Shown: positions 24,031 through 39,659 of the stretch, one piece after another
Layout of the letters: each line of letters begins with the position of its first letter
How positions within the stretch are numbered: the stretch's first letter is position 1
DNA from: Candidatus Latescibacterota bacterium
GTDB lineage: Bacteria > Latescibacterota > UBA2968 > GCA-2709665
Assembly (NCBI GenBank): GCA_965208835.1
Contig: OZ242358.1
Coordinates: 2,624,001-2,688,000, forward strand
Length of the DNA: 64,000 nt
Direction: 5' to 3'
The notes under the pieces: generated by a model
Database searches by the model: none
The model's input: the letters and a program-made list of their open reading frames with translations, nothing else
Told to the model about the DNA's origin: nothing
Position numbers and translations under genes: made by a program

Positions 24031-24921
24031 ATGCGCATCGTTGCGACCGGCTTGACGAAAATCTATCCGAAGGGGACCGTGCCCGCGCTGGACAGCGTGG
24101 ACCTGGAGATCGGAAAGGGAACATTCGGCCTGCTCGGGCCGAACGGCGCGGGAAAAACCACGCTCATCAAGATTCTTTCAACTCAAATGGCGCCGACATC
24201 CGGCCGTGTCAGCATCGGTACGTGGGATCTGCAGCGGAACCGCTCCGATGTGCGTCGCAGCCTGGGATATCTTCCGCAACACTTCGGGTCGTACCCGCAA
24301 CTGACGGCGTGGGAATTCATGGACTATATGGACCGGCTGGCGACGGGCCGGCGCAGGAACGGCAGAAAGGCGCGGGTGCGCGACGCACTTGAGAACGTGG
24401 GGCTCTACGAAGCGCGCGACCGCCGGACGGGTACGTTTTCCGGGGGGATGATGCGGCGTCTCGGGATCGCTCAAGCCATCGTCGGCGATCCGGAAATCCT
24501 GGTTGTTGACGAGCCCACGGTGGGACTCGATCCGGAAGAACGCATACGCTTCCGGGGGATCCTCGCGCGGTTGAGTCGGGACAGGGCAATCCTGATCTCC
24601 ACCCATATCGTGGGTGACATTTCGAGTACCTGTGATGACCTGGCGGTGCTGAATGCAGGACGGATCGTCTACAGGGGATCTCCGGAGGCACTGGTTACTC
24701 GCGCCGAAGGCAAGACCTGGCGCGTGCAGGCGGATGATGCCGAATTCGAAACGATATCCCAACGGTTTCTGGTTGTGACGGTCGCCGTGGACGGAGGCCG
24801 GATGGATCTCAGGTTCGTGGGCGATGGTCCGCCGCCGGCCCAGGCGGAACCGGTCTCGCCAAATCTCGAAGACGCGTACGTCTATTTTATGGGCATGGAG
24901 AATGCGGAAGGGGCTGCGTAG
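24031..24921 (+). CDS. ABC transporter ATP-binding protein (ABC-2 type)
   Basis: GPNGAGKT, YLPQ, FSGGM, VVDEP, STH, PNLEDAY. Confidence 0.95.
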   Translation: MRIVATGLTKIYPKGTVPALDSVDLEIGKGTFGLLGPNGAGKTTLIKILSTQMAPTSGRVSIGTWDLQRNRSDVRRSLGYLPQHFGSYPQLTAWEFMDYMDRLATGRRRNGRKARVRDALENVGLYEARDRRTGTFSGGMMRRLGIAQAIVGDPEILVVDEPTVGLDPEERIRFRGILARLSRDRAILISTHIVGDISSTCDDLAVLNAGRIVYRGSPEALVTRAEGKTWRVQADDAEFETISQRFLVVTVAVDGGRMDLRFVGDGPPPAQAEPVSPNLEDAYVYFMGMENAEGAA

Positions 24922-24924
24922 GCC

Positions 24925-27900
24925 ATGAATACCGTCTTCACCATTTTGTCCGTGGCCAGATACGAACGCAAAATGCTGATGCGTACGATCCGGTTTCGCA
25001 TCCTGGGTGGTATCGGCGTGCTCATCCCCGTTGTTCTGGGCATCGGCCTGGCGATCGCGGAGTCCAGAGGCGTTGAATTCGAGTCTGTCAGCGGAATCGG
25101 CGCCTACATGCCCTTTTTTGTCTACAGCCTCCTCCAGACCGTTGTGATCGCGTTTATCGTGGGTGACTTCCGGGCCGCGGATGAACGCGCCGGAATTTAC
25201 GAGGTGGTCGCCGCACGTCCGCTTTCTACCGCCGAACTGGTCATTGGGAAGTATCTGGGGGTTCTGGGTGCGCTGATTACGCTGAGCCTGATCGTGCTGG
25301 TACTCAGCCTCGGAGTGCAGGCGGCCAAGATCAGCATTACGGGAGCGCCGTTTGCCATTCGACCCTATCTGACGTACTTGCTCCTGCTGAACCTGCCGGG
25401 GCTGATCTACATGTCCGCGCTTACGTTTTTCCTCGGGGCGGTATTGCGCCGTCAGGCCGCGGTGACCGTGCTGACCATCGCTTACGTCCTGATTGTTCTC
25501 CTGTTCCTCGGGCGCCGATACGGCGGCGTCTACGACTTCGGCGCATTCTTCGCCCCCGTGTTCTACTCGGATATGCTCGGGCTTGGCGATATTCGGCGCG
25601 TCGTCGAAATCCGGTTTTTCTACACGATGCTTGCCCTATTCTTCTTTGGTCTGTCAATCGACCGGTATCCACGGCTGCCCCAGTCCCTGTCCTGGCGCAG
25701 GTTCGGTCGATGTCTGACCGCCGGCGGTTTCGCTGCCGCGCTGTGCCTGTACATTTACATGGAAAACCGGGACTCGTCAGATCTGGCATTCAGGACGGCG
25801 CAGCTGGAAGTTCAGGAGAGATATGCCGGACATCCAACGGTGGCCGTTTCGCATTACTCGCTCGACCTGGACCTCGCGACCGCGCGGACGCCGCTGCGGG
25901 GCAGGGCGGTTCTGAGCATTTCGAACCCTCATTCCGCGCCGCTGGATACCCTCGTTTTCAGCCTCAACCCGGGATTGAGACTGCGAACCGTGAGTGCAAA
26001 AAACGGTGAGGGCGCCGCCGTCGACTGGCAACGCGAATACGCCGTCGTACGGGTCGCCCGAACGCTCCAACCCGACAGCATGGCGACGTTGGCGTTCGAA
26101 TACGACGGTTCGATTGACCTCAGCGGATTCGATCTGAGGCGTCATCCGGATGCGAGGCGTCTGCAGAAACGGCGCGCGGGGCCGGGTAGAAAAGGTGATC
26201 TGACCGCCTGGATCGGGGGGAATTCCGTATTCCTGCCGCCCCGCAGCCGGTGGTACCCTTCGCCGGGTGTGGACTACGGACACGAGGATGGCAGACCCGT
26301 GTCCTTCGCCACCGCGGATCTGGAAATCTCTCTTCCGGCGGGACTGGAGGTTGTAACCCAGGGGATGCCGGTCAGCCGGAAGGCGGAGGGCGGACGGGAG
26401 GTCCATTCGTGGAAGGCACGACGCCCCGTGCCTTTTCTCTCGCTCAACGCTGGCGTCTACCGAGTATTCCAGGCCGAGATTCATAACATCCAATGCGCCG
26501 TTTACGTTCATCCGACCCATGCCAGGCAGGTCACCTTCTTCGAAGACGCAAGGGATGACGCCCTCGAAACGCTGGGCGAAATCCTGGACAGCGTTGAACA
26601 GGAAACCGGGCTGGCCTATCCCTACGAACGCCTGTCGGTTGTGGAGGTGCCATTCCAGGTACAATGGTATTACGACGGATGGGAGGAAGCCGGAGGACTC
26701 GTGCAGCCGGGAGTGCTGATGCTGGAAGAGGACGTGCTGATGCGGCTCAATCTGCAGCGGCGTCTGAAGTGGATGCAGCGGCGACAACGGCGAAACGACG
26801 ATCCCGCCAGGATCAAACGGGATCTGCTGGTCAGCGCCGTCCTGCGCACATTCTTCGGCCGGGAGTCGACACAGGGCGGCATCTACCGAAGTCCGGTTGC
26901 GCAGCTCTGGTCGTTCAACAAGGGCTTCGAAGGCGAACACTACTCCCTGCTCAAGCGCGGAATGCCCGTCTATATTCAGCAACATCTCGAGACCAGCCTG
27001 CAACAAGGCTTCTATTCGCGGAGGGGCAGGTTCCGCGGTCGGTTCCGGCGCAACAGGGGCGCGCAAGGCGTCTCATGGGATACGGTAACGTCAAAGATGC
27101 GCCAGCGTTCTTTCGCGGAGCTGGATCCGAGTGCCGACGCGGAACTCTACCGTGCAGTCGTCGACGCCAAGGGCGCCTCCATGTTCGGGATGATGCAGGC
27201 CGTGGTGGGTGACGAGACGTTCAGAGACCTGGTCAGCGGATTCGAAGCGGCGAACCGCCACGCGGCGGTCGACTTCGGGTCCTTCGAGCGGGCGGCTGTC
27301 GGGGATTCCTCGCGCCAGGTGGAACGACCCGACCTGCATCGCCTCGTCAGCGACTGGCTGCACGGCACCCAGGTTCCCGGATACACACTGACACGGGCAA
27401 AGGCATACAAAGTGGACGATGGGTGGGGCATGATGGTGTATCAGGTCATCGTAAGGATTCGAAACGGCGAGCCGGGGCGCGGATTCGTCCAGATTCGAGC
27501 GATGGGGAGCGAAGACGAGGCGGTCAAGGGCGTCGAAATAGAAGGCGGGCAGGAGGTTGAGGTGGGGTTGATCCTCTGGGAACGGCCATCGAGAGTCAGC
27601 GTCGAGCCGTTTTTTGCACGCAACCGTCGCGTGTTGATGGTGCCGTTGCGCATACCCGAACAACCGATGGACGGATCCGCTACGACCTACGTGAGGGAGG
27701 TGGCACCGGATGAGACCGGATTGACCGAGATCATCGTGGACAACGACGACGATGGCTTCGAAATGCCGGTCCGCAGGGTGCGGCGCTATCTCCGACCACA
27801 GTTGAAGGGTGACAACTGGCAGGAGCGTCAGTTGCCGTTTTCCTTCGGCCGGTATGAAAACAACTTCCGGTGGAAGAAACCCGGCGACGGCGCGCAACCG

Positions 27901-28323
27901 GCCGTCTGGACCGCCCGATTGCCGCACAGCGGCGATTACGACGTCTACTACTATTTCATTCATCCAAGGTTCTCCAGGCGCCTGCGTATGGCCACGGAAT
28001 TCAGCCTTGTCGTCTCCCACGGAGGCGAGGTGGATACACTGGCGGTTGAAGCAGGCAAACTCAAGGGCGGCTGGAACGTACTGGGACGATACCGGTTCGA
28101 AGGCGGGGAGTTTGCCAGCGTCGAATTGTCCGACCGGGCAAACGGGCGCCTATATGCGGATGCGGTGCGCTGGAGGTACGTGGACCCCGACCACCCGGAA
28201 GAGGTGTATGAAGAAGATCTACCCGCATGGGATTTCGGCCGGGGACGTCGGGCCAGCGACCGGAGCGGACGAGGCGGCGGCAGCCGGAGTGGCGGAGGAC
28301 AATGGCGTGGAAGAGGTTGGTAA
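24925..28323 (+). CDS. ABC-2 permease fused to a degenerate M1 aminopeptidase-like ectodomain and a golvesin/xanthan-lyase-type C-terminal domain
   Basis: About 7 N-terminal TM helices with RPLS.AE..IGK; HYSLDLDL, WYP, YPYERLSVVEVP, AKG..MF.M, DWL; IIVDNDD...GDYDVY...GWNVLGRY...ADAVRW; no HExxH. Confidence 0.75.
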   Translation: MNTVFTILSVARYERKMLMRTIRFRILGGIGVLIPVVLGIGLAIAESRGVEFESVSGIGAYMPFFVYSLLQTVVIAFIVGDFRAADERAGIYEVVAARPLSTAELVIGKYLGVLGALITLSLIVLVLSLGVQAAKISITGAPFAIRPYLTYLLLLNLPGLIYMSALTFFLGAVLRRQAAVTVLTIAYVLIVLLFLGRRYGGVYDFGAFFAPVFYSDMLGLGDIRRVVEIRFFYTMLALFFFGLSIDRYPRLPQSLSWRRFGRCLTAGGFAAALCLYIYMENRDSSDLAFRTAQLEVQERYAGHPTVAVSHYSLDLDLATARTPLRGRAVLSISNPHSAPLDTLVFSLNPGLRLRTVSAKNGEGAAVDWQREYAVVRVARTLQPDSMATLAFEYDGSIDLSGFDLRRHPDARRLQKRRAGPGRKGDLTAWIGGNSVFLPPRSRWYPSPGVDYGHEDGRPVSFATADLEISLPAGLEVVTQGMPVSRKAEGGREVHSWKARRPVPFLSLNAGVYRVFQAEIHNIQCAVYVHPTHARQVTFFEDARDDALETLGEILDSVEQETGLAYPYERLSVVEVPFQVQWYYDGWEEAGGLVQPGVLMLEEDVLMRLNLQRRLKWMQRRQRRNDDPARIKRDLLVSAVLRTFFGRESTQGGIYRSPVAQLWSFNKGFEGEHYSLLKRGMPVYIQQHLETSLQQGFYSRRGRFRGRFRRNRGAQGVSWDTVTSKMRQRSFAELDPSADAELYRAVVDAKGASMFGMMQAVVGDETFRDLVSGFEAANRHAAVDFGSFERAAVGDSSRQVERPDLHRLVSDWLHGTQVPGYTLTRAKAYKVDDGWGMMVYQVIVRIRNGEPGRGFVQIRAMGSEDEAVKGVEIEGGQEVEVGLILWERPSRVSVEPFFARNRRVLMVPLRIPEQPMDGSATTYVREVAPDETGLTEIIVDNDDDGFEMPVRRVRRYLRPQLKGDNWQERQLPFSFGRYENNFRWKKPGDGAQPAVWTARLPHSGDYDVYYYFIHPRFSRRLRMATEFSLVVSHGGEVDTLAVEAGKLKGGWNVLGRYRFEGGEFASVELSDRANGRLYADAVRWRYVDPDHPEEVYEEDLPAWDFGRGRRASDRSGRGGGSRSGGGQWRGRGW

Positions 28324-28367: not shown

Positions 28368-29453
28368 TTGAAGAGAAAAGTCCTGGGCGGTTTTTATATG
28401 GTATTCACCGCATCTGCCATTCTGGCCGGATGCGGCGGGCAAACAGAACAGCGGTCCGTGGATCTGACCGTCCCCGTGACGGTTCAGGCAGTGCGTCTGG
28501 ACACCATGGAGGCGACAGTGGCGGCCACGGGCACGCTCCGGCCCTTCAAAGAAGCCCGTATTCAGACCGAGGTGGAGGGAATTATTCAATTCGTGGCGCG
28601 GGGCGTCGGCGGACGACTGACGGAAGGGATGCGGGTGACCCGGAACCAGGAGATCGCCCGTCTTGCAAACAGGGAGCTCGTTGTCAACGCGCGCCTGGAA
28701 TCCCGTGAACTTGCGCGCTCCGCGGCGACGCGCACGCTGCGCGAGCAGGAGGTACTCGTAGAACGCAAACTGGGCACGGAGAGAGACCTGGAAGAAGCGC
28801 GCCGGGCCCTCGCCGAGGCCGAATCCAACTATGAAGATGCTCTCGTTCAGATCGCCAAGACGACGATTCGGACGCCAATCGCCGGTTTTCTGACAGGATT
28901 GGCCGATATTACCGAAGGCACGCTGGTGGAAGCCCGCACCACCGTTGCAACGGTGATGGATTACAATCAGGTGTTCGTCGATCTCAAGATTCCAAATGCA
29001 TATATCGCATCCGTTTCACCGGGCCAGGTCTTGCGGGTAGAGAACTACGCGTTGCCCAACCGGCGGTTTCTGGGGACCGTCAAGGTCGTGGACCCCGCCA
29101 TCGATCCGACGACGCGTACGTTCCGGGTGCTGGGGGTGGTAAAGAACCCGAACCTGATGCTGCGCCCCGGGATGTTCGTAAAGGCCGAGATTGTCACCCG
29201 GTCTCACGAAGACGCGGTCGTGGTCCCGCGCCGCTTCGTCCTGACCCGCCAGAATCGTAAGGTGGTGTTCGTCGAAGAGGAGGGAAGGGCACAGATGCGC
29301 AATGTGAAACTGGGATTGGAGGGGCCGGAGCAGGTCGAGATTCTCGAAGGGCTTGAACCGGGTGAGCGCCTCATTACCAGCAATTACGAGACGCTGCGGC
29401 CGCGTACGCGCGTGCGGGTGACCGGGGACGGCGTGTCGGGGCAGCAACGATAA
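28368..29453 (+). CDS. RND periplasmic adaptor (membrane fusion) lipoprotein
   Basis: Lipobox LAGC; ATGTL.P, TTIRTPIAG, IDPTTRTF, LRPGMFV. Confidence 0.92.
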   Translation: MKRKVLGGFYMVFTASAILAGCGGQTEQRSVDLTVPVTVQAVRLDTMEATVAATGTLRPFKEARIQTEVEGIIQFVARGVGGRLTEGMRVTRNQEIARLANRELVVNARLESRELARSAATRTLREQEVLVERKLGTERDLEEARRALAEAESNYEDALVQIAKTTIRTPIAGFLTGLADITEGTLVEARTTVATVMDYNQVFVDLKIPNAYIASVSPGQVLRVENYALPNRRFLGTVKVVDPAIDPTTRTFRVLGVVKNPNLMLRPGMFVKAEIVTRSHEDAVVVPRRFVLTRQNRKVVFVEEEGRAQMRNVKLGLEGPEQVEILEGLEPGERLITSNYETLRPRTRVRVTGDGVSGQQR

Positions 29454-29541
29454 CCGTGAGCGCCGTACATCCATCGTCCTGACTGCCGTACCGGCTCGAG
29501 AGGTCCCGTCTGCAACGAACGAAACATCGTGTGAAATTTTT

Positions 29542-29725
29542 GTGTCCTGTCCCGAAATTTCCTCACCATTCGACCGCCGATTCATCCCGTCTCGCTGCGT
29601 TCCCGTCGCTCGCCGACCATACGCAGGTTGCCTGCGCTCCGGCGCTGGTTCCTGAGCCTGTCGAAGGATGCGAGCCGGGCGACTCAGCGGTCGAATTCAT
29701 CCAACTTATTTCCGGGACAGAACAC
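29542..29725 (+). mobile_element. MITE copy 2 (184 bp, with ~21-bp internal insertion)
   Basis: GTGTCCTGTCCCG...CGGGACAGAACAC; aligns to copies 1 and 3 except for extra TGGTTCCTGAGCCTGTCGAAGGA. Confidence 0.85.
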
Positions 29726-29734
29726 CAGATTGGA

Positions 29735-29782
29735 CCCCTCTGGGGCCCGGCGACAGCGTGTGGGCCTTCCGGAGGGTTTTTT
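29735..29782 (+). terminator. Terminator-like hairpin between adaptor and RND genes
   Basis: CCCTCTGGGGCCC...GGGCCTTCCGGAGGG followed by T7. Confidence 0.5.
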
Positions 29783-29954
29783 TAACCCGCTGTGTCGATG
29801 CACGCATACCGGAGACATGGACCCGCGACCCACGATGTCTTCAGGCATCGTCACACTCGATCCCGGGGACCTTTTCCTGCCATCGTCTCCATCCATGTAA
29901 ATCTACGGTTTCTGAGTTAAAGAAACCTGTTCTTGCGCAAAAAGGGCCGATACG

Positions 29955-32900
29955 ATGTCATTGCCCGAATTCTCGACGAAATATCCCGTGACGGTCGCTA
30001 TGGCGACGCTGACGGTAGCGCTTCTCGGCTGGATTTCGCTGGAGCGGCTGGACGTGGATCTGTTGCCCGACCTGCGTTCGCCCGTGATCACTGTGGACCT
30101 GCGTTTTCCGGGCAAGACGCCCAGAGAGATGGAGGAACGATATGCGCAGCACCTGGAGGGTGACATCGGCACGGTGCGACACGTCAAACGGGTACATTCC
30201 GTGTCACGCTCCGGGCAGGCCGTGGTAATCGCGGAATTCGAGTGGGACGCGGACATGGATTTCGCCGTACTCGATGTGCAGAAGAAAGTGGCCCGGTACG
30301 CGTCGGACCCGGATATCACGAGCCTGGACGTTACACAGGAAGACCCGCAGGCGTTGCCGGTGATGCGCCTCGCCGTATCGGGAGCGGACTGGCAGGATCC
30401 CGACGAATTACTGGGCAGGGTGGAGAACATCATTCGGCCCAAGCTTGAAGGGATGTCCGGAGTGGCTTCGGTGGAAATCGAAGGGGGGGCCGAGAAAGAG
30501 ATCCGCGTCACACTGGATTCCTATCTCCTGCAAGCATTTGGCGTTAATTCCGAAACGGTGGTCTCGCGGATTCGCGAGGCGAATTCGGATGTCTCCGGAG
30601 GAACGCTGAAGGACGGGCAGCGATCTTATCTGGTAAAGGGCCTGGGACGCCTGACGGATCTTGCGGACGTGAACAATCTGGTTGTGGGCGAGCGCAGGGG
30701 CGAATCGACGAACGGCGGAGACGACGCTTCGACCCACCGCGTGCCGGTCATGGTCAGCGACGTGGGTACCGTAGCTCTGCAATACAGAGAGCGTGAAACC
30801 ATCGTGCGCCTGGACGGTATTGAATGTGTAGGGCTTTCAGTTTACAAGGAAGCCGACTCGAATACCTCTTCAGTCGTCAACGGAGTCCTCCAGGAACTGG
30901 GAAGCCTGGAGGCCGATCTGGCCGGCATCCGGTTTACCGTGGTGGAGAACCAGGCGCGCTTTGTCGAACGCGCGGTAGATGAAGTGGAAGAGGCGGCTGT
31001 TATCGGCGCGTTGCTGGCCGTGGGCGTGCTGCTTGCCGCGCTCCGGCAATGGACGGCCACGCTGGTGATCGGCCTTGCCATTCCGATCTCCGTCCTGGCG
31101 ACCTTTACGCTGATGTATTTCCAAGGGTTGTCGTTGAACGTGATGACCCTCGGCGGTCTGGCGCTGGGCGCGGGCATGCTGGTGGATAACGCCATCGTCG
31201 TGATTGAAAACATCTACCGGCACCTCGAAAGTGGAGAAACCGCCGTGGAAGCCTCGGTGAAAGGCGCCGGCGAGGTCGGGGTCGCGATTCTGGCTTCCAC
31301 CCTGACGACGGTTTCCGTCTTTCTGCCGATCGTCTATCTTCAGGGGTTGGCCGGCGAACTCTTCAAGGAACAGGCCTGGACGGTTGCGTTTTCACTGATT
31401 TCGTCTCTTGCCGTAGCGATGACGGTGGTCCCAATGTTGACCGCACGGCTCTTCAGTCGGTATCGGCGCAGATCCACCAGGGCCGCCGGGGCGGGGACGT
31501 TCAGGCGTTTTCTGGATGCGTCCCTTAACCATAAGGGCCGCACGATGGCGGTACTGGCAGCCTGCCTTCTGGCCGCCTTCTATATGGCCTCGTCCATCCA
31601 TACGTCATTCATTCCCACGGAAGACGAGGGCGTACTTCACGTGGACCTCGCAATGCCGGAGGGCACAAGGCTCGAGTCGACAGACAGAGTGGCGAGGCGG
31701 GTTGCGGCGATTGCACAGGCGGTTGCCGGAGAGGAAGCACGGCACATCTACCTGCGGGCGGGAACCGATCCGAACCGGTTCACGGCCGTGGGAGAACCCA
31801 CAGGCCCGAACCGGGCCGAGCTGACGGTCGTCCTGGGCCCGCAAACGGACCGCCGGGGTGTCACTGAACTCACCGCCGCACTGGATGCAGCTCTTCTGGA
31901 AGTTCCGAACGTCAAGGTTAACTATCGACTGCACAAATCTGCGTTGGAAGGACTTGTACGTGGAGGCGCCGCACCGGTCCAGGTGGAGGTCAGCGGTGAG
32001 AATCTGGTACTGCTTCGGGAGCTGACGGCAGACTTGAAACGGCGTATGGACGTGCTGTCGACGGTATATAATGTACGAACCAGCTTCCAGGACGGTCAAC
32101 CCGAGGTGGACGTCGTGCTGCGGCCGGAAGTCACAGCGGCGTTCGGCCTTACCTCACAGAACCTCGTGCGTGAACTCGAGCGCAGACTCGGCGGCGAGGA
32201 AGCCGGAGAACTCTCCAAGGACCAGCGTGCGCGAACCATCCGGGTGGGGTTCGAAGACGTGGATCTTCGTGAGTTGGAACATGCGAGAATCGACGGCCCC
32301 GACGGGGCAAGGCTCACGCTGGGAGACCTCGCCGACCTTCGCGTGGTCCAGGGTCCAAGAGAAATTCTGCGTGACGGTCAGCGCAGGGTGGGGAGGGTAT
32401 CCGCTTTTCTGACCGAAGGCGTGGTCTTGAGCCAGGCGGCAACGCAGATCAGACAGGCGGTCAGTCAGATGGCCATTCCACACGGGTACCGGATAACCAT
32501 AACCGGCGAGGAACGGGAACGTGCCGAATCGTTCGGAGGCCTGCAATTCGCCCTTCTGCTTTCCGTGGTGCTCGTCTACATGGTCATGGCATCGCTCTTC
32601 GAGTCTCTGCTGCATCCGTTTACCGTGATGCTGACCGTGCCGCTGGCCGGCATCGGGGTGGTGTTCGCATTCTGGGGACTGGGAGAGGCTTTCGGCGTGA
32701 TGGCTTTCATCGGAGCGATCATGCTGGGAGGCATCGCGGTCAACGACGCCATCATCCTGGTGGACCACATCAACCAGTTGCGGCGGAAAGCGGGCGATGT
32801 CAGGATGGCCGTCCTCCAGGGCGCGCAGGATCGTCTGCGTCCCATCCTGATGACCAGCGCCACGACCATTCTGGCACTGCTGCCCATGGCGGTGGGTGTC

Positions 32901-33038
32901 GGCGAAGGCGCCCGCCTGCGGGCGCCGATGGCAGTGGCGGTTATCGGCGGATTGGTGACGTCCACATTAATGACCCTGGTGGTGATTCCAGTCGTCTACG
33001 AAATGATCGAACGGCTCAGAAACAGGAGGACGGCGTGA
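29955..33038 (+). CDS. RND efflux permease (AcrB-like)
   Basis: 1027 aa; VDLLPD, GMLVDNAIVVIEN, FES.LHP, AVNDAIIL, RLRPILMT, PMAVAVIGGL. Confidence 0.95.
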   Translation: MSLPEFSTKYPVTVAMATLTVALLGWISLERLDVDLLPDLRSPVITVDLRFPGKTPREMEERYAQHLEGDIGTVRHVKRVHSVSRSGQAVVIAEFEWDADMDFAVLDVQKKVARYASDPDITSLDVTQEDPQALPVMRLAVSGADWQDPDELLGRVENIIRPKLEGMSGVASVEIEGGAEKEIRVTLDSYLLQAFGVNSETVVSRIREANSDVSGGTLKDGQRSYLVKGLGRLTDLADVNNLVVGERRGESTNGGDDASTHRVPVMVSDVGTVALQYRERETIVRLDGIECVGLSVYKEADSNTSSVVNGVLQELGSLEADLAGIRFTVVENQARFVERAVDEVEEAAVIGALLAVGVLLAALRQWTATLVIGLAIPISVLATFTLMYFQGLSLNVMTLGGLALGAGMLVDNAIVVIENIYRHLESGETAVEASVKGAGEVGVAILASTLTTVSVFLPIVYLQGLAGELFKEQAWTVAFSLISSLAVAMTVVPMLTARLFSRYRRRSTRAAGAGTFRRFLDASLNHKGRTMAVLAACLLAAFYMASSIHTSFIPTEDEGVLHVDLAMPEGTRLESTDRVARRVAAIAQAVAGEEARHIYLRAGTDPNRFTAVGEPTGPNRAELTVVLGPQTDRRGVTELTAALDAALLEVPNVKVNYRLHKSALEGLVRGGAAPVQVEVSGENLVLLRELTADLKRRMDVLSTVYNVRTSFQDGQPEVDVVLRPEVTAAFGLTSQNLVRELERRLGGEEAGELSKDQRARTIRVGFEDVDLRELEHARIDGPDGARLTLGDLADLRVVQGPREILRDGQRRVGRVSAFLTEGVVLSQAATQIRQAVSQMAIPHGYRITITGEERERAESFGGLQFALLLSVVLVYMVMASLFESLLHPFTVMLTVPLAGIGVVFAFWGLGEAFGVMAFIGAIMLGGIAVNDAIILVDHINQLRRKAGDVRMAVLQGAQDRLRPILMTSATTILALLPMAVGVGEGARLRAPMAVAVIGGLVTSTLMTLVVIPVVYEMIERLRNRRTA

Positions 33039-36000
33039 TTCTCCCCGATCTTGCGGTCCGGCGGCCGGTCACCACGTCCATGTTCTTTGCCGCGTTCGCC
33101 ATATTGGGGGTGGTGTCGTGGACGAGGCTCCCCATACAGCTTTTTCCGGAGCTGATCTTTCCGGAGGTATATGTCACGCTGACGCTGCAGGGGGCCTCTC
33201 CGGAACAGGTAGAGAGAGATCTGCTGATTCCCGTCGAAGGCGAGATCGGCAAACTCGACGGCGTCCAGGAGATGGAATCGTTCGCGATGGCAAACAGGGG
33301 GGGTGTCCGGGTATCCTACGCCCCCGACGTGGATATGAAATTCGCCCTGCTTCAGCTGCAGAGCAACCTGAACCGATTGCAGGCATCGCTGCCCGAACGC
33401 ACGCAGACCGATGTACGGAGGTTCGATTCGACCGATCTCAGCAGCAGCATTATGGAGCTTCACGTGCTTGCCGACTGGGACCTGAACCAGTTGCGGGAGT
33501 TCGCGGAGGAAAAGATCCGACCCGAACTGGAGTCTGTCGACGGCGTCGTGAACGTATCCGTATTGGGCGGGCGCCGCAGCGCGGTTGAAATCGTCCTGGA
33601 TCCGTTCCTGCTGGAAGCGCACGGCCTTTCGACGGGCCAGGTACGGACACGCCTTAACAGCCACAACCGGAGACGTGAGTACCTGGGTCGGGTATACGAC
33701 GGGAACCGGGCCTATTCGGTTAGCATTCAGGGACAGTTTACGGACCTGCACCAGATTCGCAATCTCGTCTTGAACGAGGACGGCACGCTCAGGTTGGGCG
33801 ACGTCTCGCGGATCAGGCACGGACTTCAGGAGCAGGCCGATCGGCACAGAGTCAACGGCAAACCTTCTGTGGGCGTGCGCGTCCAGAAGGACGACGAAGC
33901 GAATCTGATCGAAGTGGCCGCTGACGTGGAAACCGCCGTTGGCCGGCTGAATCGGAATCTCGAGAGTGAGGGTGTGGAACTGGGCGTGAGTTCCTCCCAG
34001 GCCGATCTGATGACGGGGGCGCTCTCCACCCTGAAACAGGCGGCCATCGTCGGTGCCGTGCTCGGGCTCATCGTACTCTTTCTGTTTCTTCGCAACCTGC
34101 GTTTTGTCTCGGTCCTCCTGCTGGCCATCCCGGTCTCCCTCCTGATGACCTTTAATCTGATGTACCTGGGCGGGCTGTCCGTCAACGTGCTGTCGCTTTG
34201 CGGTCTCGCGCTCGCGATGGGAATGCTCGCGGACAACGGCATCGTGGTGATGGAGAATATCTTCAAACACTACGAACGAGGAAAGTCGCCCGCGCGCGCG
34301 GCACGGGACGGGGCGTCCGAAGTCGGGCGCGCGGTGATCGCGGCGACAGCAACCACGGTAACCGCATTCCTGCCGGTTCTGTTCATCGAAAGCGACGCAC
34401 GAGACCTGCTGCGTGAACTCGCGTTGTCCATGGCGTTTCCGCTTGTGGCTTCGCTGCTGGTGGCGCTTACGCTTGTCCCCGCCCTTGCCGTCCGCGCATT
34501 GAGCAGCGAGGTCCGGCAGCCGCCGGACGTCCGTGGCCTGCTCGAACGGTATACCATGCTGTTGAAGGCCGCATTGCGGCACCGTGCATCTGTGGTCCTG
34601 GCGGTCGGCGCCGCCCTTGCGCTGACACTCGTCCTGGCCTTCTTCTACCTGCTTCAACAACAGGTACGGAGGGAGGAGACGCGCTTTACGGTTTACGTGA
34701 ATCTGCCGGAAGGCGCCACGCTGGATGCCACGGATGAGGTTGTGAAACAGGTGGAGGAATCCGTACGGGACGTGCCCGGTCTGGATCGCTTTACGGCGTC
34801 GGTCCGTGAGGCCGAGGCCGACGTAAACGTCCTGCTGCATAACCGTTCCGGGCGGCCCGGTGGTATCTCGCTGGATGAAATCAAGGAACAGCTGGACGAG
34901 AAACTGCAGAATGTACAGGGAGGTGTCGTTGGATACGAACCCAGGCCCAGGGCGGGGAGGGGGGGCCGTGGGCAGGGGATAGGTCAACGCCGGCGGCGCA
35001 GTTCCGGAGGGTTCGATCTGACCGGAACCACGCCTGCAGAGCAGGTCGTGGTACGCGGATACGACTTTACGATACTGACAATGATCGCGAACGACGTGTC
35101 ATACCGGCTTGAGGAACTCGAGGAGGTGGATGCCAACAGTGTACGTGCCGACGCCGAACGGAGTTCGCCCGAGGTCCAGGTGATTCCCGACGCGTCGGCC
35201 CTGTTCGACAGGCGGCTCGACACGCGGGAGGTCCTCGCTGCAATGGGTGACACCCGATGGGACGGGTTCAGAACGACCGTTCCGTTTCTGCTGCCCGATG
35301 CCACCGAGATACCCATCGAAGTGCGAACGATCGAAGAGGAGGACCGCGACCGGTACGGGCTGTCTGAATTCCGGCGTTCGCGCATTCTGAACCAGGACGG
35401 CCACTACGTACCTCTTAACGAAGTCGCCCGGGTCCGGACGGACGAGGGCAGAAGCAGCCTGTTGCGGACCGACCAGACTCGCCGGCTCGTGGTTTCGTAC
35501 AGGTTTCCATCGGAAGTTCTGGATTCTCAACCACGATTGGATCTTGCGAGGCGGGCGGTGCGCGCGACGCTGCAGGATATGCTGCTTCCCGAGGGTTATT
35601 CGATCGAAGTCATCGAGGCACACGAGGAGATGATTTACTATTGGATGATGGCAATAGCCGCGGTACTCATCTATATGATTCTGGCCTCGCTGTTTGAATC
35701 TCTCTCCTCTCCGATAATCATCCTGTGTACGCTTCCGCCCGCGGCCATCGGCTCCTGCTGGGCGCTGATGATGTCAGGTACGGGCCTGAGCCAGCAGGAG
35801 GGTCCCATGGCGCTACTGGGCTTCATCGTCCTGCTTGGTATTGCGGTGAATAACGGGATTATCCTGATCGACGCCGTCGGTGTGCTCAGATCCCGATTCG
35901 GCTATCGTCGGGAACGCGCCGTACTGGCGGCCGCGAGATCCCGTGTAAGACCCATCCTGATGACAACGGCCACCACGCTGCTGGGCGTTCTTCCGCTGGC

Positions 36001-37747
36001 GCTGGAATTCGGCGGCGATTTTGAGATCTGGCCACCCTTCGCAATCACGGTACTGGGCGGATTGTCGGTCTCCATGGTGTCCACGCTGATCCTGATTCCA
36101 GTCGTATATATGGGACTGGATCAAATCGGAGATTGGCTTGCAGATATGGGGTTAATCGGCGTCGCGCTCTCGCTGCTGGCCACGGCCGCGGCCGGCTACG
36201 GCATATTTGTCCGATATGAAAGCACCTTCTGGGCAAGCCTGTCGATAATACCACTCTGGATTGTCTTTTTGACCGTGGCGTGGATCATCCAGAAGGTACA
36301 TCGCTCGCGAGTCGCCGCCCGCCGCGTGTCGAGCGCCGTACACGCCATTCAGTTGAGAAACCTTACCAAGATTTACGGTGCACCCGGACGATTCGTGCGG
36401 GAGTGGGCGCGTGATGAGCGCCGGCGCGGGCGGCTGATGAAAACAGGTCTGGATCCGCAGGACCGCAAGGCGATCCGCGACGCACTCTTTTGGAAGCTGC
36501 CTTTGCTTGCGCTGTTGTCGTTATTCACCGCCTATTTCGAAGACGAAATCTGGGTCTATCTGCATGGGTTGGCGTTGGCCTTTATGGTGGCCCACGTGGG
36601 TCGATGTTTCGCAGACCTCCGCCAGTGGCATCTGCAGGCGCCGTTCGCTGCCATTGTCAGACTGCTGAACAAAGTCGTTCTTCCACTGACGCTTATCGCC
36701 TATGTGCACTGGCGGCTGGACCTGCTTTCGGTCACGCTTGCCACATTCGGACTGTGGGCCGCCTATCGTCTGGCACGCCGGCTTGCAAACCGGGTACGGA
36801 CGGGCGAGATCGATCCTGATGCCCTGTCGGGACGTCTTCTGCGACCGCGCCGGTGGTTCTATCAGATGGCGTCGGCGCTGCCTATTATTGGCGTTCCCCG
36901 GCGGGAATTTCGGGCGCTGGCTGGCGTCAACCTGGAAATCGGCAGGGGGATGTTCGGTCTTCTGGGTCCGAATGGCGCCGGCAAGACCACGTTGATGCGT
37001 ATTCTCTGCCGTGTACTCGAACCCAGCTACGGGTCCATTCTGATCGACGGCCGAAATATCCCGAATAAGGGTTCGATCCATGGACTGATCGGGTACCTGC
37101 CACAGCACTTCGGCAACTACGGACACCTTTCCGCATACGAGTTTCTGGAGTATAGAGCGCTGCTCGAGGGCTTCAAGGACAGAAAGATTCGCGAGACCCG
37201 GGTGATCGAATCTCTGGAGCAGGTCAATCTGAGCGAACGAAGAGACGATCCGATCGGCTCTTTTTCGGGCGGAATGAAGCAGCGCCTCGGCATCGCGCAG
37301 ACGCTCCTGCACGCCCCGCTGATCGTCGTCGTGGACGAGCCCACGGCGGGACTCGATCCGTTGGAGCGTATCCGGTTTCGCAACCTGCTCGCCAGGCTGA
37401 GTCAGGATCGCATCGTCATTTTTTCCACGCATATCGTGGAAGACATCTCGGGAAGCTGCAATCGGCTGGCGGTACTGGACCAGGGGCGTCTACTGTATAC
37501 GGGAACGCCGGGGGAGATGAGAAATCTGGCGGCGGGCCGGGTGTGGGACGCGGTGGTTCCGGACGGACGCTTTTCCGACATGGAGGAACAACTGAAGCTC
37601 ATATCGCACCAGCGAACCCCCGACGGCGTCCGGATGCGATTCCTGTCGGAACGGGCACCGGCCGGAATCGGCGCACAGATCGTGGACCCAACCCTGGAAG
37701 ACGCATATCTCTACCTGCTTGGCGGAGGGGAGGGACAGCCGTGCTGA
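33035..37747 (+). CDS. RND permease fused to extra TM helices and a C-terminal ABC ATPase domain
   Basis: aa 1 to ~1025 RND (GMLADNGIVVMEN, AVNNGIIL, RVRPILMT), then TM segments, then GPNGAGKT, YLPQ, FSGGM, VVDEP, STH, PTLEDAY; GTGA overlap with the upstream RND gene. Confidence 0.92.
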   Translation: MILPDLAVRRPVTTSMFFAAFAILGVVSWTRLPIQLFPELIFPEVYVTLTLQGASPEQVERDLLIPVEGEIGKLDGVQEMESFAMANRGGVRVSYAPDVDMKFALLQLQSNLNRLQASLPERTQTDVRRFDSTDLSSSIMELHVLADWDLNQLREFAEEKIRPELESVDGVVNVSVLGGRRSAVEIVLDPFLLEAHGLSTGQVRTRLNSHNRRREYLGRVYDGNRAYSVSIQGQFTDLHQIRNLVLNEDGTLRLGDVSRIRHGLQEQADRHRVNGKPSVGVRVQKDDEANLIEVAADVETAVGRLNRNLESEGVELGVSSSQADLMTGALSTLKQAAIVGAVLGLIVLFLFLRNLRFVSVLLLAIPVSLLMTFNLMYLGGLSVNVLSLCGLALAMGMLADNGIVVMENIFKHYERGKSPARAARDGASEVGRAVIAATATTVTAFLPVLFIESDARDLLRELALSMAFPLVASLLVALTLVPALAVRALSSEVRQPPDVRGLLERYTMLLKAALRHRASVVLAVGAALALTLVLAFFYLLQQQVRREETRFTVYVNLPEGATLDATDEVVKQVEESVRDVPGLDRFTASVREAEADVNVLLHNRSGRPGGISLDEIKEQLDEKLQNVQGGVVGYEPRPRAGRGGRGQGIGQRRRRSSGGFDLTGTTPAEQVVVRGYDFTILTMIANDVSYRLEELEEVDANSVRADAERSSPEVQVIPDASALFDRRLDTREVLAAMGDTRWDGFRTTVPFLLPDATEIPIEVRTIEEEDRDRYGLSEFRRSRILNQDGHYVPLNEVARVRTDEGRSSLLRTDQTRRLVVSYRFPSEVLDSQPRLDLARRAVRATLQDMLLPEGYSIEVIEAHEEMIYYWMMAIAAVLIYMILASLFESLSSPIIILCTLPPAAIGSCWALMMSGTGLSQQEGPMALLGFIVLLGIAVNNGIILIDAVGVLRSRFGYRRERAVLAAARSRVRPILMTTATTLLGVLPLALEFGGDFEIWPPFAITVLGGLSVSMVSTLILIPVVYMGLDQIGDWLADMGLIGVALSLLATAAAGYGIFVRYESTFWASLSIIPLWIVFLTVAWIIQKVHRSRVAARRVSSAVHAIQLRNLTKIYGAPGRFVREWARDERRRGRLMKTGLDPQDRKAIRDALFWKLPLLALLSLFTAYFEDEIWVYLHGLALAFMVAHVGRCFADLRQWHLQAPFAAIVRLLNKVVLPLTLIAYVHWRLDLLSVTLATFGLWAAYRLARRLANRVRTGEIDPDALSGRLLRPRRWFYQMASALPIIGVPRREFRALAGVNLEIGRGMFGLLGPNGAGKTTLMRILCRVLEPSYGSILIDGRNIPNKGSIHGLIGYLPQHFGNYGHLSAYEFLEYRALLEGFKDRKIRETRVIESLEQVNLSERRDDPIGSFSGGMKQRLGIAQTLLHAPLIVVVDEPTAGLDPLERIRFRNLLARLSQDRIVIFSTHIVEDISGSCNRLAVLDQGRLLYTGTPGEMRNLAAGRVWDAVVPDGRFSDMEEQLKLISHQRTPDGVRMRFLSERAPAGIGAQIVDPTLEDAYLYLLGGGEGQPC

Positions 37748-38463
37748 ACTGGCGGGAACTGCTGTTGACCACGTGGCGGCTTTATCGGCTGAGCTGCAGG
37801 ATCATCTTTCACAGGAAACTGATGTTCATGTCCATTGGCATCCTTGTCTATTACGCCGCCATGTACGCATTCGCGGTGTGGCGTCCCGACGAAGGATTCG
37901 GCGTATCGAGGGCGCTCCATGTTCTGGTTGAAATTCCCGGCATCGCACTGGCCATCTATCTGACGATGGATCTCGTCGCTGGCGAACGTGACAGGAATAC
38001 ACTGGAGACGTTGTTCAGCACAACCTCGTCGCACTACAGGATCTGGACGATTCGAATGTTGGGGGTCTATCTGGTGCTTGCGGGAACACTAACGGGAATG
38101 ACGATTGTCGCCTACTTCTTCTTCGCGGAACTGCCGATCCTATGGGGCGGGTTGAACGCCTTTCTGCCGGCGTGCTTTGCAGCGGGGCTCACTTTTTACT
38201 TTTCCGTTCTCTGTCGAAGCGGAAACGCGGCCGCAATGCTCGCAACGGGCGTGATGGGCCTGACGCTTGTTGCCTCACAATCAATGCCCGACTCGCCCTT
38301 CGTGCTTTTTCTGGATACGTTCGATCCCCCGGTGGGAATGGAAGACACGTTGTGGGGCGACCGCGTACTGCTGAATCGCATGGCGGTCGCGCTGCTGTCG
38401 GGCCTGCTGCTTCTTATTGGTCTTCGCAAGATGGAAGCCAGGGAAAGATTGGTATCTTCGTAG
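37741..38463 (+). CDS. ABC-2 type permease
   Basis: About 6 TM helices, GERDRNTLETLFST motif; GTG overlaps the upstream stop. Confidence 0.8.
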   Translation: MLNWRELLLTTWRLYRLSCRIIFHRKLMFMSIGILVYYAAMYAFAVWRPDEGFGVSRALHVLVEIPGIALAIYLTMDLVAGERDRNTLETLFSTTSSHYRIWTIRMLGVYLVLAGTLTGMTIVAYFFFAELPILWGGLNAFLPACFAAGLTFYFSVLCRSGNAAAMLATGVMGLTLVASQSMPDSPFVLFLDTFDPPVGMEDTLWGDRVLLNRMAVALLSGLLLLIGLRKMEARERLVSS

Positions 38464-38516: not shown

Positions 38517-39659
38517 CTATTCCCTGCTTACATCCAATCGGACCTTCCGGGGAACGACGTTTACGACCGCCAGGTCCGTCCCGTGCCTTACCGACTCGGT
38601 GCCGAATTCAAAGGTTCTGCGTCCAAACCTCACGTAACCGGCGTCGATAACGAGTTGGAAGTCGTCCACGGGCGCCAATAGGATTGCACGACGCGGACCC
38701 TTCATGGTAACGTCTACGACGGCAGGTGTAACGCCCTTCAGCTTATAGCCACGTGGCAGATTCTCCACGCCGACCTTCACTTCGTATGTCGTTTCCCGGA
38801 CCGCCGCGCCGGGTACCAGAAACATCCACGCGCAGAACGCCAGCACGAGGGAAACCAACCCCTCCGCAAGACGCCGCACCAGCCGGCCCCGTCCGTTTTT
38901 CCGCCCGCCGGCGACCACGTGCTGCGCATGTTCCTGCAACCTGGCCAGAAGTTCAACCGGGTCGCCTACGACTTCCAGCACTCCCTGTTGCGCCACGGAG
39001 ATGGTGCCGCGCTCTTCGGAGACAACGAGGCACAGGGCATCGCTGCGTTCGGCCAGCCCGAGCGCAGCGGCGTGGCGGGTGCCTCCCGCGCCGAGTTCGG
39101 TGCGGTTTTCCGAAAGCGGCAGATGTACGGCGAAACGCTCCAGTTGGTCATCTTTCATCACCAGAGCCCCGTCGTGGCCCGCCGACGACGTACCGAACAG
39201 GCTGTCGATCAGCTCTTCACTGATATTGGCCTGTAGCGCGATCCCGCCCTGCAGAAGCCTGTCCAGCGGCTCTCGCCCGGGCAGGACCACGAGGGCGCCC
39301 CGCCGCTTCACCGCCAGCTGATGAATCGCACGAACCAGCACCGCCAGGCTGCCTCCTCGGGGCCGGGATACCCGTCTGCCGAGGCCCAGCGCGGCAATCT
39401 GTTCGAACAGCCGCCGGAGGTCGTCCTGAAATACAACGACAAGCAGCACAACCAGCACTGCGAAAAAACCCTGGAATATCCACGCCGTCAGCTGCAGTTC
39501 GAATTGCCGGGCCAGCAGATAGAAGACGCCCAGAAACGCCAGCCCCACAAGCGCCATTCGCGCGTGCATTCTCCGTGTCCAGGCAAGCAGACCCCAGATC
39601 AATACACCCACGACCGCTACGTCCACCAGATCGGCAAATGCGATGTCCATTAACGCCAT
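38517..39659 (-). CDS. cdaA: Diadenylate cyclase CdaA with C-terminal TM and YbbR (CdaR-like) domain
   Basis: 3 N-terminal TMs, VVFQDDLRR, GALVV, HDGA, GTRHAAALGL, VVSEERG; C-terminal P..V.VT.KG...VP.KV. Confidence 0.88.
   Translation of the reverse strand: MALMDIAFADLVDVAVVGVLIWGLLAWTRRMHARMALVGLAFLGVFYLLARQFELQLTAWIFQGFFAVLVVLLVVVFQDDLRRLFEQIAALGLGRRVSRPRGGSLAVLVRAIHQLAVKRRGALVVLPGREPLDRLLQGGIALQANISEELIDSLFGTSSAGHDGALVMKDDQLERFAVHLPLSENRTELGAGGTRHAAALGLAERSDALCLVVSEERGTISVAQQGVLEVVGDPVELLARLQEHAQHVVAGGRKNGRGRLVRRLAEGLVSLVLAFCAWMFLVPGAAVRETTYEVKVGVENLPRGYKLKGVTPAVVDVTMKGPRRAILLAPVDDFQLVIDAGYVRFGRRTFEFGTESVRHGTDLAVVNVVPRKVRLDVSRE

Follow-up and report, generated by a model that had tools for sequence, protein, structure and literature searches.

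An RND permease fused to an ABC ATPase with a predicted membrane insertion between its first two strands in a Candidatus Latescibacterota bacterium

This analysis concerns a stretch of 64,000 nucleotides of DNA from a Candidatus Latescibacterota bacterium (assembly GCA_965208835.1, contig OZ242358.1, positions 2,624,001 to 2,688,000 of the forward strand), the whole of which is referred to below as the window, and it centres upon a gene that joins a permease of the resistance-nodulation-division (RND) type to an ABC-type (ATP-binding cassette) ATPase. This gene (33035..37747, + strand), defined by open reading frame (ORF) translation and Pfam searches, starts with GTG, overlaps the stop codon of an upstream RND gene by 4 nucleotides (nt) and encodes a protein of 1570 amino acids (aa). 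Both parts of the protein are recognised by Pfam: the ACR_tran model matches aa 5-1027 (E 2.3e-184, 615.4 bits vs a cut-off of 28, profile positions 3-1019 of 1021) and the ABC_tran model matches aa 1297-1438 (E 1.9e-26, 93.7 bits vs a cut-off of 25). The chain begins with an RND permease of the AcrB/MdtB type (33035..36118, + strand; aa 1-1028) with 12 transmembrane (TM) helices, which is followed by an extra TM hairpin (hairpin 1; 36122..36325, + strand) whose two helices, TM13 (aa 1030-1061) and TM14 (aa 1064-1097), are indicated by AlphaFold2 and hydropathy. The strand AIQLRNLTKIY (36344..36376, + strand; aa 1104-1114), which we will refer to as strand 1 of the ATPase, comes next and is marked by an AlphaFold2 strand, conservation and a matrix scan. 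It is succeeded by a 179-aa insert (36377..36913, + strand; aa 1115-1293), characterised by AlphaFold2, hydropathy, charge and hhalign repeats, and then by the remaining ABC ATPase from strand 2 onwards, together with its C-terminal domain (36908..37744, + strand; aa 1292-1570), as seen with Pfam, NCBIfam and Foldseek. The two helices of hairpin 1 and four hydrophobic helices of the insert are collectively called the six-helix module below.

A homologue search with aa 1030-1570 of the fusion as the query listed 120 proteins, and both Pfam families, RND and ABC, are present in every one of them. Most of these homologues are ~1550-1620 aa long, cover 94-100% of the query and share 38-89% identity with it; the databases give them generic names only, and the sources named among them include Gemmatimonadota, Acidobacteriota, Latescibacterota, KSB1 and Krumholzibacteria. 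Additionally, a six-frame search with the module and strand (aa 1029-1302) gave matches in 84 of 168 genomes from the phylum of the window, including 34 of the 52 that are of high quality. A single locus was found in each genome (split in two in a pair of draft genomes), no internal stops were present, and the matched frames measured ~1570-1600 aa wherever the contig was long enough, single-contig genomes included. If an assembly error, a frameshift or an error in gene calling had joined separate RND and ABC genes, the fusion would be artificial. We found no support for this, though two short database entries (P0124 and P0128) look split; the contigs that carry the four short forms that were checked measure 2.4-3.8 kb, and three of these forms share 90% clusters with members of 1565-1570 aa. 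Because the reading frame is continuous across many genomes and the 120 listed proteins, the fusion is not an artefact, and the chance of such an error is in our view negligible.

The segment IQLRNLTKIY occupies aa 1105-1114 of the fusion (last base 36376) and the sequence ALAGVNLEIG begins at aa 1294 (base 36914), so that exactly 179 residues (aa 1115-1293) separate these two pieces. An uninterrupted reference for this fold is provided by a free ABC ATPase paralogue encoded in the same window (24031..24921, + strand; 296 aa), whose N-terminus reads MRIVATGLTKIYPKGTVPALDSVDLEIGKGTFGLLGPNGAGKT. In this protein strand 1 and strand 2 form a contiguous hairpin and the equivalent two pieces are only six residues apart. 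Such a contiguous hairpin is a hallmark of ABC ATPases; in the fusion it is broken in the chain by the 179-aa insert, and the three-dimensional fold is predicted to re-establish the sheet. An earlier sequence-only reading of this DNA had claimed that the ABC fold is split by a membrane insert between its first two strands, and all of the sequence elements that it quoted were recovered in place. It had also anticipated that profile searches would miss the displaced strand, which was borne out: the GldA NCBIfam profile matches the free paralogue from position 1, but in the fusion its match begins at aa 1294 with position 17 of the profile. None of the reported matches to Pfam or NCBIfam extends to strand 1, and none covers the six-helix module.

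The conservation of this region was examined in an alignment of 66 homologues, with residue counts made on 80 sequences, hydropathy on 78 and RND residues on 79. The spacer between TM12 of the RND part and strand 1 is 74-80 aa long in the 66 aligned homologues. Within the strand K1112 is present in all 80 sequences, Y1114 in 79 (the remaining one has F) and L1110 in 77; an alternating hydrophobic pattern precedes K1112 and Y1114, and no other stretch between TM12 and strand 2 is as well conserved as the strand segment. A position matrix derived from the strand region of the family was also used to scan five free ABC paralogues or orthologues, and in 5/5 of them its best site was the N-terminal strand; for the free paralogue of the window, 21 of 2000 shuffles reached its score, which is modestly significant.

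An AlphaFold2 model of aa 1029-1570, based upon a 66-row alignment, has a mean predicted local distance difference test score (pLDDT) of 87.3 and a predicted template modelling score (pTM) of 0.75 (residue numbers of this model plus 1028 give those of the protein). It contains the helices 2-33 and 36-69 of hairpin 1, an 11-residue strand at 76-86 (aa 1104-1114), the insert helices 91-108, 116-136, 143-168, 174-200, 203-227 and 241-252, and a strand at 264-275, after which a normal ATPase domain follows. As all other strands of the model sit in the ATPase region, the partner of the strand 76-86 must be found there. In a control model of aa 1029-1293, from which the ATPase domain was removed (pLDDT 91.8), the helices are unchanged and residues 76-86 are no longer a strand. 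The control keeps single bridges only, at residues 86 and 264, which are the two ends of the insert, as would be expected if the insert had taken the place of the turn in an antiparallel hairpin. From these models strand 1 is predicted to join the ATPase sheet in an antiparallel arrangement with strand 2.

A different explanation for these observations is that the resemblance of LTKIY to an ABC strand is accidental, the ATPase either lacking strand 1 or using the segment before strand 2, and aa 1104-1114 serving some other role. The modest matrix score of the window's paralogue and the fact that the profiles stop short of the strand segment would agree with it. However, the near-invariance of K1112 and Y1114, the hydrophobic alternation upstream of them and the conservation of the segment all speak against an accident, as does the fact that AlphaFold2 forms the strand with the ATPase domain and not without it; in a separate complex prediction (see below), moreover, residues 86-87 are among the ATPase residues that face a permease. 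We therefore consider an accidental resemblance to be very improbable. Y1114 lies 197 residues before Walker A, whereas the A-loop aromatic residue is usually located a few tens of residues before this motif. The A-loop aromatic residue stacks on adenine, according to one account (PMC7756269), and from its position we infer that Y1114 is an adenine-stacking tyrosine of the A-loop type.

The insert is present in all 66 of the aligned homologues, with a length of 163-240 aa. It consists of a polar helix (aa 1119-1136), two hydrophobic helices that form hairpin 2 (aa 1144-1164 and 1171-1196), two more that form hairpin 3 (aa 1202-1228 and 1231-1255) and a second polar helix (aa 1269-1280), which leads into a linker to strand 2. 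Both polar helices are arginine-rich, are predicted to be cytoplasmic and are not membrane segments. The first of them (window 36389-36442), located just past the putative A-loop tyrosine, has the consensus GAPGRF.REW.R..RR and ranks with the best-conserved parts of the insert and above its membrane helices, with R1122 present in 71, E1123 in 68 and W1124 in 78 of the 80 sequences. Other conserved positions of the insert are W1153 (78/80) and P1283 (79/80).

RND proteins have cytoplasmic termini. As 14 TM helices precede strand 1 and four lie in the insert, both of which are even numbers, both strands should be cytoplasmic. The median values for the best 17-residue hydropathy of the six module helices are 1.71, 2.09, 1.42, 1.85, 1.51 and 2.09, whereas the 12 TM helices of the RND part range from 1.64 to 2.99 and the two polar helices of the insert have values of -1.37 and -0.09. 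The content of K+R per residue is 0.00-0.08 in the loops predicted to be outside and 0.30-0.38 in the flanking polar helices, and the loop charges of the insert, as read from its sequence, follow the positive-inside rule. The four helices of the insert are accordingly arranged as predicted membrane-spanning segments in what follows.

The insert could instead be a soluble or membrane-peripheral helical bundle that sits on the ATPase and has a regulatory role, in which case it would be a larger analogue of the regulatory insertion (RI) of CFTR. Two of its four helices are moderately hydrophobic (medians 1.42 and 1.51), and the third in the protein from the window contains R, N and K. CFTR's first domain for nucleotide binding (NBD1) also has, at the same site, an insertion that is not in the membrane; this RI, which is described as a disordered, cytoplasmic and dispensable segment of 32 residues, provides the closest precedent for an insertion at this position (PMC4101494). 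In contrast to it, the insert of the fusion is 163-240 residues long, is confidently helical in the models, has four predicted membrane crossings and occurs throughout the family. A peripheral bundle is also difficult to reconcile with the length of the four helices (21-27 residues each), with the fact that in each of them at least 91% of the 78 sequences exceed a hydropathy of 1.0, and with the higher medians of the second and fourth helices; the truly polar helices of the insert score far lower, and the short loops between helices on the predicted outer side are devoid of K and R. Further, the insert hairpins show profile similarity to hairpin 1, which must cross the membrane since it lies between TM12 and a cytoplasmic domain. 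Hence, we regard a peripheral location of the insert as improbable and favour the prediction that its four helices span the membrane.

The sequence-only reading had counted roughly four hydrophobic helices in the insert and two further TM helices between TM12 and the first strand. AlphaFold2 and hydropathy agree on the former number, the two additional Arg-rich polar helices being a refinement, and the latter two are hairpin 1. Of the observations that, according to that reading, would speak against it, viz. a strand that does not pack into the sheet of the NBD, a lack of conservation in homologues or a location on the opposite side of the membrane, none was made: a strand is predicted that is lost without the ATPase domain, its LTKIY segment is conserved, and both the even numbers of TM helices and the charge bias of the loops place it on the cytoplasmic side.

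The three hairpins of the module were compared with each other by the profile-profile method, using hhalign. Hairpins 1 and 2 matched with a probability of 83-91% (E 1e-6 to 9e-6) and hairpins 2 and 3 with 89-90% (E 2e-6 to 3e-6), while hairpins 1 and 3 matched with 27-50% (E 2e-4 to 7e-4). For reference, the true internal repeats of the RND part scored 90% (TM3-4 vs TM9-10) and 96% (TM5-6 vs TM11-12), and the module hairpins scored at most 6.6% against the six RND hairpins in all 18 comparisons. In the alignment the turns of the hairpins read Y-E-S..W, Y-F-E-D..W and W-R-L-D. These sequence comparisons suggest, with moderate confidence, that the module consists of three copies of one TM hairpin. 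A possible homology of the module with the small ABC-2-type permease encoded downstream was also considered and rejected, the hhalign probability being 0.2-0.4%.

The occurrence of the module outside the fusion was examined by several means. A word-indexed search of shorter proteins yielded seven matches, all of them fragments or broken frames. An exhaustive phmmer search of 1.84 billion representative sequences gave 50 matches, 18 of which are at least 1355 aa long; in the 17 that measure ~1560-1590 aa the module is located at about residues 1018-1320, and the remaining 32 matches are 69-1149 aa long. A stand-alone form of the module was dropped as a candidate in view of the four short matches on 2.4-3.8 kb contigs described above, and no complete protein that has the module without the RND part was found in either of these searches. 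At the level of the fold, Foldseek found nothing against the PDB at E <= 0.001 (best E 1.1, TM-score <= 0.25) and the ESM Atlas gave no usable match. These results support the conclusion that, outside the fusion, nothing related to the module can be detected, in agreement with the earlier suggestion that the extra helices may form an unrecognised membrane module.

The ATPase part of the fusion contains GPNGAGKT at aa 1311-1318 (bases 36965-36988), and this motif, together with Q, SGGM.QR, DEP, GLD and H, is invariant in 66/66 homologues. We take these residues to be Walker A, the Q-loop, the signature, Walker B with its Glu, the D-loop and the H-loop, and by these motifs the fused ATPase domain is catalytically intact. 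The best NCBIfam models for it are DrrA (TIGR01188; 165.6 vs a cut-off of 312.45, from profile position 5) and GldA (TIGR03522; 158 vs 402.6, from position 17), and since both scores are below the curated cut-offs, the fused ATPase is related to the DrrA and GldA families and is not a member of them by the NCBI thresholds. The top Foldseek matches of the ATPase part are 4yer, NosF and LptB. The free paralogue likewise retains all of the catalytic motifs; it is 45-46% identical to the fused ATPase over the whole domain, and the C-terminal domain is common to both. The fused ATPases of distant loci are 52-56% identical to that of the window and 42-46% identical to the free ATPase, and as they are closer to the fused than to the free protein, the fusion must be old within the phylum.

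Directly downstream of the fusion, a gene for a small ABC-2-type permease (37741..38463, + strand; 240 aa) begins with a GTG that lies within the last 7 nt of the fusion gene. This gene is present in 12/12 loci that were fetched, which represent different genera and families, and its start ranges from 27 nt before to 72 nt after the end of the stop codon of the fusion. When aa 1029-1570 of the fusion and the small permease were submitted together to complex prediction, the score was 0.64 (0.66, 0.64 and 0.64 in individual runs), compared with 0.00 for the best of three controls; the mark applied to docking scores is reached by 58 of 80 solved complexes and by 2 of 110 mismatched pairs. The contacts agreed to at least 86% between runs and the pLDDT of the partner was at least 74. 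Confident contacts on the ATPase side involve model residues 86-87, 294-301, 321-355, 394 and 398, which include the Q-loop and the region of the helical subdomain, and those on the permease side involve residues 6-24 (the N-terminal helix), 85-101 and 234-238. Judging by known structures we take this to be an ordinary ABC-2 interface, and the small permease is predicted by these models to dock on the fused ATPase in the usual ABC-2 way. The passing score may reflect a likeness to ABC-2 ATPase-permease complexes that are already solved.

Of the relatives with solved structures, MdtB (9lyq_B, E 2.8e-85) gives the best match to the RND part of the fusion. In the proton relay of RND proteins of the HAE-1 type, such as AcrB and MdtB, a pair of Asp residues in TM4 acts together with a Lys in TM10. 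At the aligned sites MdtB has D-D and K-N, whereas the fusion has D-N in TM4 and N-N in TM10, and the relay of two Asp and a Lys is absent from it; the TM4 residues D and N and the first N of TM10 are each found in 79/79 sequences and the second N of TM10 in 74/79. Among the best NCBIfam models for this part are MdtC and MdtB/MuxB, with scores far below their equivalog cut-offs (e.g., 376.6 vs 1774). The upstream gene, identified by Pfam and by comparison of loci, encodes an unfused RND permease paralogue (RND1; 29955..33038, + strand; 1027 aa) that shares 32% identity with the RND part of the fusion. In TM10 RND1 has N-D, both in the window and in 12/12 loci; for TM4 the search pattern matched in 10 of the 12 loci, and these, like the window, have D-N. 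The classical HAE-1 triad is missing from both paralogues. Within the periplasmic part of the RND domain of the fusion there is also a Gly/Arg-rich stretch of low complexity (PRPRAGRGGRGQGIGQRRRRSSGGFDLTG; window 34940-35026, aa 636-664), and the family consensus is likewise rich in G in this region.

The order of genes is the same in 12/12 loci: a large ABC-2-like protein, an adaptor, RND1, the fusion and the small permease. A gene for the free ATPase was found in all four of the fetched loci that extend far enough upstream. The large membrane protein (24925..28323, + strand; 1132 aa) has an N-terminal match to the Pfam ABC-2-type model ABC2_membrane_3 that is below threshold (29.6 bits vs a cut-off of 31.6), and it gave no NCBIfam match. 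It also has a Golvesin C-terminal domain (Golvesin_C, E 1.6e-15), which is likewise found in the homologue from locus L027. The periplasmic adaptor, or membrane fusion protein (28368..29453, + strand; 361 aa), matches Pfam HlyD_D23 and is found in 12/12 loci; its score with the NCBIfam model RND_mfp is 191 bits vs a cut-off of 94.9. In both of the distant loci examined, a gene for an outer-membrane efflux protein (Pfam OEP; E 1e-48 and 9e-42) is located between the large protein and the adaptor (L027:2923-4473 and L025:14124-15656). The window and its closer relatives do not have a gene at that place.

Based upon these results we propose that hairpin 1 joins TM12 of the RND part to strand 1, and that hairpins 2 and 3 occupy the turn between strands 1 and 2. 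Because each hairpin would bring the chain back to the cytoplasm, strands 1 and 2 could form a normal antiparallel hairpin. The ATPase fold would then be complete, yet fixed to the membrane by three tethers; the sequence-only reading had proposed that the NBD is anchored to the membrane, which this model supports. The partner on which the tethered ATPase would dock is the small permease, whose gene overlaps the end of the fusion gene. We assign a probability of about 0.72 to this architecture together with the pairing of the fused ATPase with the small permease. The machine as a whole would comprise the free ABC ATPase, the large ABC-2-like protein, the adaptor, RND1, the chain of the second RND, module and ATPase, and the small permease, to which two distant relatives add a gene for an outer-membrane factor. 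In such a machine an ATP-driven ABC-2 exporter would be held against an RND pump, and a substrate moved or extracted by the ABC half might pass to the RND, the adaptor and the outer-membrane duct in a hard-wired, two-stage efflux. By analogy with MdtBC, the unfused RND1 would make room for a heterotrimer that contains two protomers of the fusion, from which a single ATPase dimer would follow. Far less certainty attaches to the two-stage transfer and the 2:1 stoichiometry than to the architecture. The order of domains, their conservation, the predicted pairing of the strands, the hydrophobicity and charge bias of the helices and loops, the repeats, the synteny and the predicted docking were shown by computation, whereas the membrane embedding, the stoichiometry, the substrate and the energetic coupling of the RND and ABC halves can here only be inferred.

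Several observations weigh against this proposal. The pairing of strand 1 with strand 2 was deduced from the DSSP strings of two models rather than seen directly, and in a covariation analysis of 72 related sequences the best partners of column 77 were 275 and 273, with a z of ~2. The first and third helices of the insert are marginally hydrophobic, a value of 1.6 being reached by 37-38% of sequences. The confident docking interface contains no residue of the six-helix module, and the Pfam ABC-2 matches of the small permease (17.5 and 16.7 bits) are below their cut-offs of 31.6 and 27.2. The fetched loci, moreover, all come from the phylum of the window, the other phyla being represented by source names alone.

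A further consideration is that the fused ATPase could pair with the free ATPase (24031-24921) instead. The two would form a heterodimer with the large and small ABC-2-type proteins as its membrane halves, and one heterodimeric ABC-2 transporter would be tethered to a single protomer of the RND trimer. The locus in the window does have two ATPase domains and two ABC-2-type membrane proteins, the free ATPase recurs in every locus that extends far enough upstream, and the two ATPases are 45-46% identical and have the C-terminal domain in common; a trimer with a single fusion protomer would, in addition, remove the mismatch between 3-fold and 2-fold symmetry. However, each ATPase gene is directly succeeded by a permease gene of its own, which begins 3 nt further on or overlaps it, the usual sign of cognate pairs, and the catalytic motifs are complete in both ATPases, so that neither shows a degenerate site such as obligate heterodimers often have. 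We consider this heterodimer unlikely, though of appreciable weight, and prefer the pairing of the fused ATPase with the small permease.

It may also be envisaged that the three tethers on strands 1 and 2, which flank the putative adenine-stacking tyrosine, act as a mechanical link from the ATP site to the TM domain of the RND part, so that the binding or hydrolysis of ATP drives or gates the conformational cycle of the RND protomer, or the reverse. The loss of two of the three charged relay residues from the fused protomer (with N-D in TM10 of RND1) might point to such a drive or gating. This bolder interpretation strikes us as quite unlikely. If true, an RND pump would be partly powered or gated by ATP, and primary and secondary active transport would be united in one polypeptide.

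RND pumps use the proton gradient and ABC transporters use ATP, and efflux systems of these two kinds are regarded as distinct classes. The fusion brings both classes together in one chain, which is kept in half of the sampled genomes of the phylum and is named from several other phyla. If the proposed architecture is correct, it would mean that the core sheet of an ABC ATPase domain can accommodate a large insertion that spans the membrane; it would also offer a natural system for studying whether two-stage efflux involves physical cooperation between ABC and RND transporters, and would show how a 2-fold ATPase dimer can be matched to a 3-fold RND trimer. It further reveals a blind spot of profile-based annotation, by which the displaced strand 1 and the six-helix module were both missed.

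The component families of this system are known. Like DrrA-GldA-NosF-type ATPases, for which solved structures include TM_1403 (4yer) and NosDFY (7osf and 7o0y), the fused ATPase has its best profiles and fold matches within that group, and the predicted docking on the N-terminal helix and residues 85-101 of the small permease resembles ABC-2 systems with separate permeases. However, ATPases of this type are free cytoplasmic subunits with a contiguous strand hairpin, whereas the fused ATPase is linked to an RND permease and is interrupted by predicted TM hairpins. MdtBC is a heterotrimeric RND, as stated in a review of tripartite pumps (PMC8277102). The present locus resembles MdtBC and MuxBC in having two paralogous RND genes in tandem behind an adaptor gene, as known here from the gene order and the 4-nt overlap; it differs from them in that Asn (79/79) stands in TM4 in place of the second Asp and in TM10 in place of the Lys, and in that one paralogue has 540 extra residues, including an ATPase. 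MacB is a fusion of an ATPase domain with a membrane domain and operates together with an adaptor in the periplasm and a duct in the outer membrane, and in the available text of the same review the word 'fused' is found only for MacB and SecDF (PMC8277102). Unlike the fusion, MacB has an uninterrupted ATPase N-terminal to its own permease domain and no RND component. No paper describing an RND-ABC fusion, a membrane-spanning interruption of an ATPase sheet or a module of hairpin repeats was found in the literature searched, with supplements and subscription journals lying outside this search; within that literature, these three features are described nowhere.

Two minor features of the surrounding DNA may also be recorded. 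Between the adaptor and RND1 the window has a spacer of ~500 nt (29454-29954) without a convincing ORF, and in loci L021 and L022 there is almost no gap here. This spacer gave no Rfam match at E below 0.4 and contains no promoter-like site; one weak terminator-like hairpin is present at 29907-29927. Lastly, a gene for a diadenylate cyclase, with the Pfam DAC domain and the N-terminal TM domain of CdaA, lies directly downstream of the small permease in convergent orientation (window 38517-39659, - strand).

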